NCBI GenBank assembly: GCA_017938885.1
Contig: JAGBAS010000116.1
Coordinates: forward strand, 2,760-66,759
Source: Clostridia bacterium
GTDB lineage: Bacteria; Bacillota; Clostridia; Oscillospirales; CAG-272
Direction of reading: 5' to 3'
Length of the DNA stretch: 64,000 bases
Shown one piece after another: positions 31,253 through 43,773 of the stretch (positions within the stretch are counted from its first letter, which is position 1; the number at the start of each line of letters is the position of its first letter). Position numbers and translations under genes: made by a program. The notes beneath the pieces were generated by a model. It ran no database searches and was not told where the DNA came from. It saw only the letters and a list, made by a program, of their open reading frames with translations.

Positions 31253-31735
31253 CTACCTCCGTAAAAACCCAATGTCCCCGTGAAACACATCTACCACAAA
31301 GTAAGCCGTCAGAGCGATACAGCAGCAGCACAGCACCGCGCCGAGCACGAAAACCACCGCAGTCAGCTTGGCGTTGTTCTTTTCGTATCGGGCGTTACGG
31401 TCCCGTACCTCGGCCAACAGTTTTTCCATTTCGACGAGCTGGGCCTCCTTGACCTTGAGCACGGTATCGTAGGACTCGACCACGGTCTCCACCTCCTTGG
31501 GCGGCTCCTCGCCGGGGAGAGCCACGGAAAGGATCTTGTCTACGGATATGCCCAGGGCGATGGCGATGGTCAGGACGTTTTCAAAGCCGGGCCGCTTGCT
31601 CGCGCCGCTTAGGATGCGGGAGACGGTGGTCTCGGGGATGTGGGTCATCTCGGAAATATCCTCGTTGGACAGGTGCTTGGATTTTTTGATCTCTCGGATT
31701 CTCTCAATAAGAATTTGTGTGTAATCCATTTTCAT
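31253..31735 (-). CDS. XRE-family HTH protein with coiled coil and C-terminal transmembrane anchor (membrane-tethered repressor candidate)
   Basis: HTH LSNEDISEMTHIPETTVSRILSG; coiled coil KVKEAQLVEMEKLLAEVRD; TM LTAVVFVLGAVLCCCCIALTAYFVV. The stop lies 4 nt before the int start. The exact start is uncertain (31735, 31729 or TTG 31750). Confidence 0.7.
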   Translation of the reverse strand: MKMDYTQILIERIREIKKSKHLSNEDISEMTHIPETTVSRILSGASKRPGFENVLTIAIALGISVDKILSVALPGEEPPKEVETVVESYDTVLKVKEAQLVEMEKLLAEVRDRNARYEKNNAKLTAVVFVLGAVLCCCCIALTAYFVVDVFHGDIGFLRR

Positions 31736-31769
31736 CTCACTTTCTTGCAATTTTAGTATCGAAAAATTT

Positions 31770-31941: not shown

Positions 31942-32140
31942 CATGACCGACAGCCGAAACTACAGAGACGAGCATGAGAGCCGCGACGCAGACCGTCGCA
32001 CCGAGGAGACCAGAGTCCGCGTCAAGGACAAGCTGTACAAGGCCAAGGCGGCCGGGCAGCTGGACGACGACGACGAAGACCTGATCCTGCAATACGCGCT
32101 GGGAGTCGTGACCCGACGCGGGAGACATACGCAGGAGTAA
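31942..32140 (+). CDS. Small charged protein (66 aa), paralog of the 42474-42626 product
   Basis: SD GAAAGGAAG before the ATG at 31942. The C-terminal block VKDKLYKAKAAGQLDDDDEDLILQYALGVVTRRG matches LKEKLYAAKASGLLTESDEALILEYALSIIRRRK. Confidence 0.6.
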
Positions 32141-32239: not shown

Positions 32240-32320
32240 GGAACGATAGGAGGTATTTGTGGAACGATAGGAGGTATTTGCGGAACGATAGGAGGTATTT
32301 GCGGAACGATAGGGGGTTAT
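32240..32320. repeat. Four tandem 21-bp iterons ggaacgataggaggtatttg(t/c)
   Basis: Copies at 32240-32260, 32261-32281 and 32282-32302, with a degenerate copy at 32303-32320. They are intergenic or abut the stop of the SWIM gene. Confidence 0.9.
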
Positions 32321-33411
32321 TTTTTGGGAACAGGTGTTGTGCGTAGCTTATCAAAATATATTTTCATGGAATTCTCAAATAGATCTTTTCGAACCGACAG
32401 TACGCCAGCATGGTATGCCAAAAACAGCATATGCTTGCACGGCTGTTTTGTTTTTGCGTAATCGGTACAATTACAACGAGTCAAAGATGTATCGTGATAT
32501 GCGCCAGTTTCAGACCGAACTGTTGCGCTGATGTGAATACTACCCAAAAACTCAATATTTTCGATTTGAGAACGATGAAACCTTTTGTCTTTGACGCGCT
32601 CGTAAAAATCAAACATAGTAGGATAACGATAGAACCGTTCAGCACCTGTCTCCAACCGATTTAAAGCATCTAAATACAGGGCACTAATAGAGTCTTCATC
32701 TATAAGGTTAGTTTGAGTAGAAAGATTCACTGAATGTTTCTCGCCTGCTTTTTCAGCTTCTTTTTTATAAAAAGTAAGGTGATCGTCTAATCTTTTGATT
32801 GTAGCGTTTTTCTCGGCTATTTCCTTCTTGTATCTTTCTTCAGAGGATTTGTAAGAGCGAAGTTGAACATTCAGCCAGTCAATCTCGCTTGCGGATTTCA
32901 AATCTCGTAATTTGGATATTTCGTCTCGAAGTTCTTTTTCAGTTTGCTTTTGGATAGATAAACTTATTTCAAGGCTTTTTTTATCACTTTCTAAAAACCT
33001 GATCTTGGATTCGTAATCTGAAATGATCTTCCGAAGCGAATTGTTTTCCTGCTTGTATGTGCTGATTCTCGCATCAAGGCTTTTCTCTTGCTCTTTAAGA
33101 CGTTTTTCAAACTCTTGCAGTTCCAGTTGCTTTTTTTGTGCTTCTGAGGCTTTTTTGGTCGCATCTGACATTCTCATATTATAGGCAAGTTCTTTTTGTA
33201 TGCGATCACGAGCCTCATCGGAAAGATTTAAAGAGCCTTCAGAACTCTTTTTAATTTCATCTGTTCCTCGCAAAGGTAAACCAACCAACCTGCGATATTT
33301 GTTCTCCCACACCTGGGATTCTTTTTTGCAAGCGGATAAGTTGCAAGCCAAAACAATTATTGCAATGACGGCAGCAGGAGTTGCTAATCCAACGAGATAC
33401 AGAAATTCCAT
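32317..33411 (-). CDS. Membrane-anchored long coiled-coil protein with C-terminal SWIM zinc finger (unknown function; low-GC moron)
   Basis: N-terminal TM LVGLATPAAVIAIIVLAC. About 200 aa of heptad-rich K/E/L sequence follow. SWIM CxCxnCxH: CNCTDYAKTKQPCKH. A 60-nt sample (32701-32760) has 22/60 G+C against 43/60 at 33901-33960. Confidence 0.75.
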   Translation of the reverse strand: MEFLYLVGLATPAAVIAIIVLACNLSACKKESQVWENKYRRLVGLPLRGTDEIKKSSEGSLNLSDEARDRIQKELAYNMRMSDATKKASEAQKKQLELQEFEKRLKEQEKSLDARISTYKQENNSLRKIISDYESKIRFLESDKKSLEISLSIQKQTEKELRDEISKLRDLKSASEIDWLNVQLRSYKSSEERYKKEIAEKNATIKRLDDHLTFYKKEAEKAGEKHSVNLSTQTNLIDEDSISALYLDALNRLETGAERFYRYPTMFDFYERVKDKRFHRSQIENIEFLGSIHISATVRSETGAYHDTSLTRCNCTDYAKTKQPCKHMLFLAYHAGVLSVRKDLFENSMKIYFDKLRTTPVPKK

Positions 33412-42262: not shown

Positions 42263-42496
42263 ATGAGCGAAAACGGAATGATAGTAAGACCAGCAATGGT
42301 GCAGGATGTTAAAAGAATATCTTGTCCATCTTGCAAGGAAAAAATCCATGGTGTGGGATTGACAAGAGGTGCGACAGTAGACGGCCTTACGTTTAAGTGT
42401 AGGCGTTGTGGCAGGTTTTGGGAAGTTAAACAAGAGAAAAGCGGAGAGCATGATGCTCTCCGCCAAGAGGGGATTACTGCTTGCGCCGCCGGATGA
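42263..42496 (+). CDS. Zinc-ribbon protein (77 aa)
   Basis: CPSCKEK ... CRRCGRFW. Confidence 0.55.
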   Translation: MSENGMIVRPAMVQDVKRISCPSCKEKIHGVGLTRGATVDGLTFKCRRCGRFWEVKQEKSGEHDALRQEGITACAAG

Positions 42497-42626
42497 TAGA
42501 AAGCGCGTATTCAAGAATCAATGCTTCGTCGGATTCGGTAAGTAAGCCACTCGCTTTGGCTGCGTATAGTTTTTCTTTCAAACGGAGGGCAATTTCGGAT
42601 GCTTCGGATATAGTATTGCTTTTCAT
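42474..42626 (-). CDS. Small protein (50 aa), paralog of the 31942-32140 product
   Basis: Minus-strand ATGA overlap with the stop of the upstream AP2-like gene. MKSNTISEASEIALRLKEKLYAAKASGLLTESDEALILEYALSIIRRRKQ. The ORF is below the track threshold. Confidence 0.55.
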   Translation of the reverse strand: MKSNTISEASEIALRLKEKLYAAKASGLLTESDEALILEYALSIIRRRKQ

Positions 42627-43141
42627 TTCTGACTCCTACTATTAGATTTTCGTGTGTTGTTCATTTGTGTATCCCACGTTGCCCAACGACAGTTTTCGGG
42701 GCAATAATTGCCATTGGGATCGATACGGTCTAAAGTGCATTGATTACGAGGAGCTTTATCATCATAACCGTGCGAATAAGCCCAATCAGCAAAGTTTTGA
42801 AAAGATTGTCGCCATTCATCACAAACGGTGATGCCACGGCCACCATAATCATTGTAATTGATGGCATTAGGATTAGAACAACGGGTGATCATGCCGTGCC
42901 AAACTCCGTATAGTCTTGATTGTGTTGCGTTGTGTGTTTTACGACTGTCATAATATTCTTTAAGTAAACAGCCGCAACTACTGATATGTCCAGAAGTAAG
43001 ATTAGATATTCGAACTTCAGCGTAATTGCCGCAATCACATTTGCAACGCCAAACAGATTGATGGCCGCTAAGTCTGTCCAACTTATAAAGTGCTGTAAGA
43101 CGACCAAAACGTTGTCCAGTAATATCTTTTATTCTTGCCAT
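42623..43141 (-). CDS. Phage-type DNA-binding protein (Cys-cluster N-domain plus YGGRGI/AP2-like C-domain)
   Basis: GQRFGRLTALY..WRCKCDCGN..SGHISSCGC, then SRLYGVWHGMITRCSNPNAINYNDYGGRGITVCDEW and DRIDPNGNYCPENCRWAT. It is AT-rich (21/60 G+C at 42901-42960). Confidence 0.65.
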   Translation of the reverse strand: MARIKDITGQRFGRLTALYKLDRLSGHQSVWRCKCDCGNYAEVRISNLTSGHISSCGCLLKEYYDSRKTHNATQSRLYGVWHGMITRCSNPNAINYNDYGGRGITVCDEWRQSFQNFADWAYSHGYDDKAPRNQCTLDRIDPNGNYCPENCRWATWDTQMNNTRKSNSRSQK

Positions 43142-43178
43142 AGTGCCTCCTTATGTTGATGATTATCGTTACAATGAT

Positions 43179-43207
43179 ATTATAGCACTAAATATTAGTG
43201 AAGTCAA
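43179..43207 (-). promoter_or_regulatory. Consensus promoter (TTGACT-17-TATAAT) for the AP2-like gene
   Basis: The minus strand reads atATTGACTtcactaatatttagtgcTATAATatc. Confidence 0.7.
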
Positions 43208-43300
43208 TATAAAAAGTGCACGAATTATTAGTGAACATTTTGGGCAAATATGACACTTGAATTTAGTGAATGAGGGTATTATAATTTACTTATTAGTGAA
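43195..43300. promoter_or_regulatory. Four direct copies of TTAGTGAA (operator candidates) across the divergent promoters
   Basis: Copies at 43195-43202, 43228-43235, 43263-43270 and 43293-43300, spaced 30-35 bp apart. Confidence 0.6.
43257..43285 (+). promoter_or_regulatory. Promoter (TTGAAT-17-TATAAT) for the small HTH gene
   Basis: ttgaat at 43257-43262, a 17-nt spacer, and tataat at 43280-43285. Confidence 0.7.
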
Positions 43301-43313
43301 AGGAGATGAAAAG

Positions 43314-43535
43314 ATGCCAATACAGTATAAGATTGATATCTTGAAAGAACTGAGAGAAAAAGGGTACACACAGTTTAGAATTAGGCAAGAAAAACTAATT
43401 GGTCAATCGTATTTACAACAGATAAGAAAAGGAGAGATTGTTTCAAAAAACTGCCTCGAGACCTTGTGCGAGTTGCTGGAATGCCAGCCGGGAGATCTAT
43501 TAGAGTATGTCTCAGATAAGAAACAGAATAAATGA
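43314..43535 (+). CDS. Small XRE-like HTH protein (73 aa)
   Basis: SD GAAAGGAG before the ATG at 43314. ..KGYTQFRIRQEKLIGQSYLQQIRKGEIVSKNCLETLCELLECQPGDLLEY. Confidence 0.7.
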   Translation: MPIQYKIDILKELREKGYTQFRIRQEKLIGQSYLQQIRKGEIVSKNCLETLCELLECQPGDLLEYVSDKKQNK

Positions 43536-43577
43536 CAGGCCGGACATGAGGCAAGAGCCAGAGTGCCGTTGAAAGAC

Positions 43578-43626
43578 GAGAGCCACACAAACACACCAGA
43601 GGGTATTTGTGTGGCTCTCATTTTAT
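43578..43626 (+). terminator. Rho-independent terminator
   Basis: gagagccacacaaa (43578-43591) pairs with tttgtgtggctctc (43606-43619), followed by attttatat. Confidence 0.85.
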
Positions 43627-43630
43627 ATAT

Positions 43631-43675
43631 CGGGATCCCGGAGGTAATAGGATGGTTCGACTCCATCCGACCCGA
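43631..43675 (+). other. tRNA-3'-half-like sequence (T-arm plus acceptor 3' strand), not a complete tRNA
   Basis: cgggatcccggaggtaatag-GATGG-TTCGACT-CCATC-CGACCCG-a. The T-arm is perfect. The first 4 nt (CGGG) can pair with the last 4 (CCCG). No D or anticodon arm is present. Confidence 0.5.
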
Positions 43676-43773
43676 AAAAACTAAATCACAACGTTGAATT
43701 GAAAGGTTCGTTACCTTTCATGGCTTGCATTACTACTATTAACTATTCAACCACCAAGAGAGAGGAGCAAGAA

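Follow-up and report, generated by a model that had tools for sequence, protein, structure and literature searches.

We identified a block of low-GC (guanine plus cytosine) DNA at ~42,283-43,625 inside a gut-Clostridia prophage, which lies in a 64-kb stretch of contig JAGBAS010000116.1 (assembly GCA_017938885.1; positions 2,760 to 66,759), hereafter the window, to which all coordinates given without a locus name refer. With moderate confidence, we interpret this block as an imported accessory cassette, in which a portable three-operator switch centered on HTH73, a helix-turn-helix (HTH) protein of the HTH_26 family, is joined to cargo of a homing-endonuclease family, namely the 172-amino acid (aa) protein p172 and the coupled 50-aa protein p50; the cargo would be repressed by HTH73 and released as a burst on entry. 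The anatomy of the block, its foreign composition, its presence or absence among relatives, the family memberships of its products and the co-occurrence of the operators with this type of HTH protein are all directly observed. They uphold the central claim of a preliminary description made from the letters of the window, that the region is an imported and self-contained accessory cassette: the block brings its own promoters, operators and terminators and is present or absent at the same site in related prophages.

Anatomy, composition and distribution of the cassette

The GC content of the block (42,280-43,620) is 0.409, against a genome mean of 0.574 (standard deviation 0.045), and only 0.86% of the genome windows of equal size are as low; along 42,500-43,550 it runs at 0.31-0.44 between flanks of 0.55-0.65. 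The same deviation is displayed by the GC at third codon positions, which is 0.30 for p172, compared with 0.76 for the Rep gene and 0.71-0.84 for neighboring phage genes. The genes form two divergent arms, each with its own terminator: a leftward operon of p172 (42623..43141, minus strand) followed by p50 (42474..42626, minus strand), and a rightward arm with HTH73 (43314..43535, plus strand). The leftward promoter, TTGACT-17-TGn-TATAAT (43207..43179, minus strand), serves p172-p50 and scores 11/12 with an extended -10 element, and the rightward promoter, TTGAAT-17-TATAAT (43257..43285, plus strand), serves HTH73 and scores 10/12; the region holds nine promoter-like matches as opposed to 3.7 +/- 1.8 in shuffled sequences. 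The p172-p50 operon ends in an intrinsic terminator (42440..42464, minus strand; -19.8 kcal/mol, z-score -5.2) followed by UUUUCUCUU, and no U-run follows this hairpin when it is read on the plus strand. HTH73 is followed by a stronger one (43573..43631, plus strand; -28 kcal/mol, z-score -8.4), with the stem GAGCCACACAAA/TTTGTGTGGCTC and a U-run.

These observations bear out what had been noted of a low-GC block with its own transcription signals, of two back-to-back consensus promoters and of a strong terminator behind the 73-aa HTH gene. The limits need revision: the span first proposed, 42474-43535, falls within the cassette, to which an open reading frame (ORF) for a Com-like protein and the HTH73 terminator also belong, extending it to ~42,283-43,625. 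With its own promoter and terminator, deviant composition and absence from close relatives, the block resembles a moron in the broad sense.

We compared the window with loci L001, L003, L013-L017 and L030-L039, the relatives having been located through a genome search and IMG/VR (a first scan of genome contigs for Rep gave none). The same block, with the Com-like ORF, p50, a p172 homolog, the control region, the HTH gene and the terminator hairpin, is found in L001, L003 and L017, where it sits just upstream of the g43774-Rep-terminase genes. A more distant version, partial in L030, lies on two short contigs (L030 and L031), where homologs of p172 and p50 are accompanied by an extra 125-aa gene and by a Com-like gene that converges on them. 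All four cassette genes are absent from L013, L014, L015 and L016, of which the last three are prophages of the same genus, and L013, an IMG/VR sequence, is the closest relative that we found (Rep 75% and DUF3102 87% identical). Presence/absence polymorphism at one site among relatives, which is one mark of a homing gene, is thus displayed by the cassette. Nucleotide searches of GenBank phages recovered no related cassette. The preliminary description had also raised the question of whether homologs always belong to this phage lineage at a similar GC: the former is the case for all copies found, and the latter is not for the two copies considered, as the block is low in GC within GC-rich DNA in L001 (from its profile) and L003 (on reading).

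The junctions are visible in the comparison with the cassette-less loci. In L013, L015 and L016, the early operon leads directly to another terminator hairpin, behind which a conserved leader follows. The left junction (~42,283) falls just inside the Com-like ORF, after a few codons, where L014, having shared the first codons, diverges. The right junction is fuzzy and falls between the terminator (~43,625) and ~43,720, with clear nucleotide homology to L013 resuming at 43,724. The HTH73 terminator hairpin is also present in L001, L003 and L017, and a different one is carried by the cassette-less relatives; it is cassette-specific and constitutes the right end of the cassette proper. In L014, the slot is filled by an unrelated Cys-rich gene of 138 aa (L014:4574-4990, minus strand), which begins with MTENG, compared with MSENG in the Com-like protein. 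These shared start codons suggest that gene starts may be where recombination exchanges the cargo. The phage lineage also has another nuclease in another slot: just beyond the terminase genes next to the cassette-less prophage L015 lies a genuine HNH_3 gene (65.7 bits; G022:C17:67443-67580).

The components of the cassette have diverged to unequal extents. Between the window and L001/L003, identity is 86-92% for the HTH protein, 64-86% for p50, 55-71% for the Com-like protein and 68-70% for p172. The corresponding values for L017 are 83%, 78%, 69% and 39%, with no nucleotide similarity at all in the p172 gene. From these alignments, we conclude that the nuclease-family gene is the fast-changing or replaceable part of the cassette and that, in L017, it has been swapped within a conserved frame. 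L017 also has ~190 bp between its leftward promoter and the p172 homolog (L017:7270-7453), which are GC-rich, include a 6-codon mini-ORF (MRKTHK) and are absent from the window.

The HTH_26 switch

HTH73 is a Cro/C1-type protein that matches HTH_26 (PF13443) over residues 11-68 (E 8.1e-10; 39.2 bits, cut-off 22), in agreement with the HTH assignment made earlier for the 73-aa protein. It has over 1,100 close homologs (63-86% identical), the named ones coming from Oscillospiraceae, and is 83-92% identical among the cassettes. We predict that it is the repressor of both promoters.

The window contains four copies of the octamer TTAGTGAA, all of them in the control region (at 43195, 43228, 43263 and 43293); 0.8 copies are expected by chance and four were reached in 1 of 100 shuffles. 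The preliminary description had reported four direct repeats at 30-35-bp spacing, of which the copy number stands and the term direct repeats does not: these are mainly three palindromic operators, as in three cases out of four the octamer forms the right half of a 15-bp palindrome, CACTAA-N3-TTAGTG. The predicted operator O1 (CACTAA-ATA-TTAGTG, 43186-43200) has no mismatches and lies in the leftward promoter, within its 17-bp spacer; O2 (CACGAA-TTA-TTAGTG, 43219-43233), with one mismatch, is predicted as an operator between the promoters; O3 (CACTTG-AAT-TTAGTG, 43254-43268), with two, would be an operator covering the -35 element of the rightward promoter. The fourth copy (43293..43300, plus strand) adjoins the HTH73 ribosome-binding site, has no left half and forms no palindrome, and it is not conserved in L001, L003 or L017. 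With up to two mismatches allowed, the palindrome has four matches in the window, three of which are O1, O2 and O3; with up to one, O1 and O2 are the only matches in the entire 3.03-Mb assembly. The predicted operators and both promoters are near-invariant across the four diverged cassettes, in which the flanking coding sequence has drifted.

The same arrangement recurs in other elements of Oscillospiraceae. We examined three independent HTH_26 contexts (L032-34, L035-36 and L037-39), in which homologs 66-74% identical to HTH73 face a divergent gene across a three-operator intergenic region (L032:2942-3725, L035:2964-3719 and L037:1534-2219). Two operators of L032 are letter-for-letter CACTAAATATTAGTG, which is O1, and an CACTTGAT(T/A)TTAGTG site overlaps the -35 element of the HTH promoter in L032, L035 and L037, as does O3; the positions of the operators relative to both promoters are alike in these three loci and the window. 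The divergent gene encodes not p172 but a 92-aa protein (87 aa in L039) that matches phrog_6244 and the C-terminal tail of the RecE-like phrog_434, and it is followed in L032 by a sigma-region-4-like gene. Since the same sites accompany HTH_26 homologs where p172 is lacking, and since L017 keeps its operators despite the replacement of p172 by a 39%-identical protein, it is the HTH protein and not p172 that the operators accompany. Accordingly, on the strength of this co-occurrence, the HTH_26 switch appears to be a portable unit whose cargo differs between elements and whose sites are probably bound by HTH73 and its homologs. The HTH_26/92-aa module itself is widespread in Oscillospiraceae and looks like a previously uncharacterized master switch of integrated elements.

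The p172-p50 cargo and neighboring elements

p172 belongs to a phage family labeled HNH endonuclease. Its best PHROG match is phrog_374 (HNH endonuclease, E 5e-69), followed by weaker matches to four other nuclease-labeled phrogs, and over 8,000 homologs are found in a large protein collection. A homolog is encoded in 1,296 phage records of GenBank, which span many host genera; the label is HNH endonuclease in RefSeq and HNH (homing) endonuclease in UniProt. Genomes carry one to four copies, and Kayvirus-like Staphylococcus phages of similar size have one or three, a variability in copy number that is typical of selfish homing genes. Some records (e.g., of Clostridioides phage phiCDKH02 and Kayvirus-like Staphylococcus phages) instead name members of the family deoxyuridine 5'-triphosphate nucleotidohydrolase, which is probably a propagated misannotation. 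Among the structural relatives in BFVD (E down to 1e-22), the names given are HNH, homing endonuclease and AP2-domain protein. p172 itself is matched by no model of Pfam or NCBIfam. HNH_3 (PF13392) has no match in the whole genome at E <= 1e-5, and no HNH family of Pfam is found among the 40 p172 homologs scanned at E <= 10. The earlier label AP2-like finds no support in Pfam or NCBIfam: some BFVD relatives bear that name, but PF00847 matches neither p172 nor the 40 homologs (E <= 10). Thus, p172 counts among the phage HNH endonucleases as the databases define them, and belongs to neither HNH_3 nor AP2.

The protein combines two parts. Residues ~10-58 constitute a predicted zinc unit (W-C-x-C-x-C-G ... 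S-C-G-C), and homologs display one to three such tandem N-terminal units (LTGQRFGRL...W-C-x-C-D-C-G...S-C-G-C) ahead of a constant C-terminal domain. The latter (residues ~69-165) is rich in Cys and His and closes with a beta-beta-alpha motif, LDRID-PNGNY-CPENCRW-...Q..NN; AlphaFold2 models (predicted local distance difference test scores of 90-91) place strands at 136-139 and 151-154 and a helix at 156-161. D138, R139, Y146, N150, C151, R152, Q159 and N162 are invariant in 40-47 homologs; C88 and C107 are invariant as well, H70 is 90% conserved, and the p172 of the window retains every family-invariant residue. At the position of the catalytic His of canonical HNH enzymes, p172 has Arg139, which is invariant in sets of 40 and 47 homologs. 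In a side-by-side comparison with genuine HNH_3 domains from related genomes, the p172 motif is in the same register (xxHIDxN...NLxW...N). A precedent is offered by PacI, an active HNH nuclease that has no catalytic His and features a Tyr in the loop between the strands, and which belongs to a mostly viral group lacking this His and marked by zinc sites bound by Cys (His-Me finger group 20; PMC5714182). Y146 is likewise located in the loop between the two predicted strands of p172, and from the models p172 is possibly PacI-like. The CapR homology domain (PF21817) is a zinc DNA-binding unit of homing endonucleases that serves the PLE satellite as a domesticated repressor (PMC8096241); it matches one of the 40 p172 homologs (E 3e-4) and not the p172 of the window, and the Cys spacing is CxCxC-18-CxC in p172 vs CxxC-24/26-CxC in the CapR domain. 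Whole-model Foldseek searches of the PDB with p172 gave spurious ribosomal matches only, and single-protein and profile searches of PDB sequences yielded nothing meaningful. We also considered p172 as a packaging-associated HNH protein and ruled this out, as four relatives do without the cassette, which lies on the opposite strand.

p50 is a helical protein whose start codon overlaps the p172 stop codon (ATGA), with AGGAG inside the end of p172, which confirms its proposed translational coupling to the upstream gene. It has no Pfam, PHROG, NCBIfam or PDB match, and its family comprises ~10 small clusters among 1.8 billion representatives, most of them of a GC-rich paralog type. An apparent set of giant proteins in the p50 profile search (8-18 matching stretches of 13-20 residues) was discarded as coiled-coil or low-complexity noise, and a ribbon-helix-helix assignment was dropped, having no support in Pfam or the PDB. 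Relative to the other cassettes, p50 is 86% identical to its counterpart in L003, 78% in L017 and, over residues 18-50, 64% in L001. The paralog that had been reported within the window is indeed there: a GC-rich gene (31943..32140, plus strand; 65 aa from an internal ATG) with the family consensus KxKLYxAKAxGxLTxxDExxILxYA, of which the aligned part (32006-32119, plus strand) is 55% identical to p50 over 38 aa. It stands alone beside the lysogeny genes, between a divergent HTH/membrane gene (31253-31750, minus strand; 165 aa) and a SWIM gene (32317-33411, minus strand).

The remaining gene, the Com-like zinc-ribbon ORF (42263..42496, plus strand; 77 aa), is the last of the plus-strand early operon and forms part of the variable block from about codon 7 (~42,283). 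It converges on p50 with an overlap of 23 bp at the 3' ends, and the p50 terminator hairpin lies inside it. The match to Zn_ribbon_Com is weak (18.7 bits, cut-off 22.9; E 0.0012), and that to phrog_6417, a translational regulator, has an E-value of 1.2e-5. The ORF accompanies p172 and p50 in 5/5 carriers (the window, L001, L003, L017 and L030) and is absent from 4/4 non-carriers. Its role may be translational control, as in the com-mom pair of Mu, inhibition or mere linkage.

Beside the slot, immediately after a TATAAT-like box and at the head of the g43774/Rep/terminase operon, a tRNA-like minihelix with an acceptor-like stem stacked on a T-arm (GGTTCRAnTCC) is present in all eight relatives, with or without the cassette (at 43631..43675, plus strand, in the window, and in L001, L003 and L013-L017), with compensatory changes in 9 of its 12 pairs. 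Behind it come a conserved AACAGCGTT box and a second hairpin (43697-43720). The leader falls into two sequence types, one shared by the four carriers and the other by the four non-carriers, which is a correlate only. The minihelix is a leader of the phage backbone that marks the fuzzy right border rather than cargo of the cassette, and it may serve as a processing signal of the RNase P/Z type or as a leader RNA. We rejected it as an att core brought by the cassette, as cassette-less relatives have the same structure. Rfam and ARAGORN returned nothing in or beside the cassette.

Proposed working, competing explanations and related systems

From this anatomy we infer a scheme for DNA binding, the order of repression, the timing of expression, the nuclease activity and its target. 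The cassette would consist of two units: a divergent-promoter switch, made of HTH73 and three 15-bp operators and common in Oscillospiraceae mobile elements, and a cargo of p172 and the coupled p50, in which p172 would join a zinc DNA-reading unit to a His-less PacI-like beta-beta-alpha domain. The first HTH73 dimers would occupy O1 and shut off p172-p50, O1 being the best of the operators and located within the promoter spacer. More HTH73 would then fill O2 and O3, and as O3, the weakest, overlaps the -35 element of the HTH73 promoter, negative autoregulation is predicted at higher concentrations. The leftward promoter is near-ideal and conserved in four cassettes, and its 5' untranslated region is unstructured on folding, so that strong p172-p50 production is expected whenever O1 is free. 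As HTH73 has no sensor domain, the simplest behavior would be cargo that is off in the lysogen and bursts on entry: HTH73 would be on and p172-p50 silent in an established lysogen, and the latter would be produced on entry into a cell free of HTH73 or on loss of HTH73. The early operon has no U-tract terminator ahead of the cassette; hence, lytic read-through is predicted to be antisense over p50-p172 and sense over HTH73, which would silence the cargo further. p172 itself would be a sequence-specific DNA-binding and probably DNA-cutting protein with a selfish or competitive role, either homing into cassette-less alleles or attacking related resident elements, and a burst on entry suits a homing nuclease or an anti-relative weapon better than the protection of a lysogen. 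A more elaborate form of this idea, which we regard as speculative and rather unlikely as a whole, is a regulated homing or inter-phage warfare system with a zygotic burst, in which the target is the cassette-less version of the adjacent tRNA-like leader or a resident related prophage, the variant leader of the carrier is immune, and p50 and the Com-like protein tune or restrain the enzyme.

Several observations count against the interpretation as an imported switch with homing-family cargo. All copies of the cassette that we found occupy one slot in one phage lineage, so that any mobility beyond homologous recombination would be conjectural, and tight repression is an odd fit for a classical moron expressed in the lysogen. 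The likeness of p172 to HNH enzymes and PacI is statistically weak, there being no Pfam HNH match: an hhalign comparison with five HNH_3 domains of related genomes placed DRID on HHID at a non-significant E of 0.48, and a Foldseek search of the PDB with the C-terminal domain ranked PacI first (E 1.6, query TM-score 0.43), then Cas8-HNH and the colicin E9 DNase, all with E > 1. In L017, p172 has DLID for DRID and NCFW for NCRW and has lost the NN pair, while the HTH protein, p50 and the Com-like protein are 69-83% identical to those of the window. These losses suggest that catalysis may not be what selection keeps, and the L017 copy may be inactive.

An alternative view, in our estimate improbable, is that p172 has been domesticated into a DNA-binding protein that does not cut and instead regulates or blocks genes of phages or competitors, the HTH switch only setting its dose. 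CapR is a documented case of a domesticated endonuclease domain that represses a phage operon (PMC8096241), and the family-wide Arg in place of the catalytic His, the lack of a Pfam HNH match, the one homolog with a CapR-type match and the further motif losses of L017 within a conserved frame all point in that direction. This view has to contend with the Asp, loop Tyr and Asn of a PacI-type site, which are invariant in 40-47 homologs including the window, with the multiple and variable copies in virulent phages, as for active homing genes, and with the fact that the His-less PacI does cut (PMC5714182). Still less probable is a defense, exclusion or toxin-antitoxin-like module serving the lysogen, with p172 as the toxin, p50 and/or the Com-like protein as the inhibitor and HTH73 as the controller. 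It would be comparable to a restriction gene under a C protein without a methylase, and enzymes of the PacI group work without one (PMC5714182); further, a small coupled protein directly downstream of a nuclease-like gene recalls the immunity genes of colicin DNases, and the orientation, own promoter and low GC are moron-like. However, with the best operator in the spacer of its promoter, p172 should be silent in the lysogen, precisely when defense is needed. Moreover, the p50 paralog, like most members of its family, has no nuclease partner, and p50 is still 78% identical where p172 is only 39% identical, unlike a co-evolving inhibitor.

Two further proposals concern the control region and the cassette as a whole. 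One holds that the four direct TTAGTGAA repeats are sites for p172, the AP2-like protein of the preliminary description, which would regulate both promoters itself, in the manner of I-TevI, a homing endonuclease that represses its own promoter. The 30-35-bp spacing of the four copies and the one to three tandem DNA-reading units of the family, which could read direct repeats, are compatible with this. We nonetheless consider it very improbable, given that three copies are halves of 15-bp palindromes, which are typical of dimeric HTH proteins, that the fourth is not conserved, that HTH_26 homologs have the same operators where p172 is absent, and that the L017 operators are unchanged beside a p172 replaced by a 39%-identical protein. 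The other would have the cassette be inert hitch-hiking DNA, a decaying remnant without current function, as might be surmised from the degenerate look of the L017 p172 and the dispensability of the cassette in four relatives. To this we give the least credence: all ORFs are intact in four to five diverged copies, the identity of HTH73 among cassettes is 83-92%, their operators and promoters hardly vary, and the p172 of the window has all the family-invariant residues.

If the imported switch-and-cargo interpretation holds, a phage family of over 8,000 members, which is labeled HNH and has no Pfam or NCBIfam model, would merit PacI-type biochemical testing; a dedicated repressor could govern selfish nuclease genes of temperate phages and so alter the time and place of their action; and the modular three-operator HTH_26 switch would provide both a tractable regulatory part and a marker for accessory genes. 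Should the regulated homing or warfare version also be true, it would represent a new mode in temperate phages, along with a widespread cargo-swapping HTH_26 switch. Conversely, a silent cassette would be an ordinary mosaic moron.

Several known systems share parts with the cassette. With PacI (PDB 3LDY/3M7K), p172 would have in common a compact Cys-rich beta-beta-alpha domain, the lack of a catalytic His and the loop Tyr (Y146 in p172), but the fold match is non-significant (E 1.6, TM-score 0.43), there is no sequence-level match and p172 has an extra N-terminal zinc unit. The CapR protein of PLE would share with p172 a Cys-pair zinc DNA-binding unit common to phage homing endonucleases, and is likewise borne on a mobile element (PMC8096241); unlike CapR, p172 keeps a C-terminal nuclease-like domain. 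Free-standing phage homing genes (T4 Mob/Seg and the I-HmuI-like HNH_3 type) are similar in being small genes with modular DNA-reading units and a beta-beta-alpha-type domain, low in GC, equipped with their own promoter, placed between conserved genes and variably present in close relatives, and the p172 family is multi-copy in large virulent phages. In contrast to these, p172 has an Arg for the catalytic His and no Pfam HNH match, and is under a dedicated divergent repressor with three operators and linked to a coupled 50-aa gene; we know of no described homing gene with such a repressor or such a coupled gene.

The regulatory layout, on the other hand, recalls immI of P22 (mnt/arc-ant), a self-contained secondary control region outside the main immunity region, and the three graded operators are reminiscent of lambda OR. 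As in immI, back-to-back promoters separate a small repressor on one arm from a two-gene operon on the other, and the cargo should be expressed on entry and subsequently switched off; the repressor of the cassette is, however, an HTH_26 and not a ribbon-helix-helix protein, and its cargo is a nuclease-family gene and not an antirepressor. A further counterpart is the HTH_26 switch of Oscillospiraceae (L032-L039), with an HTH protein 66-74% identical to HTH73, the same operator consensus, three operators and matching positions, from which the window differs in having p172-p50 in place of the 92-aa protein on the divergent arm. To our knowledge, neither the combination of such a switch with a homing-family gene nor the family-wide replacement of His by Arg with an invariant loop Tyr has been described. 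The parts of the cassette are thus familiar, and their combination appears to be new.

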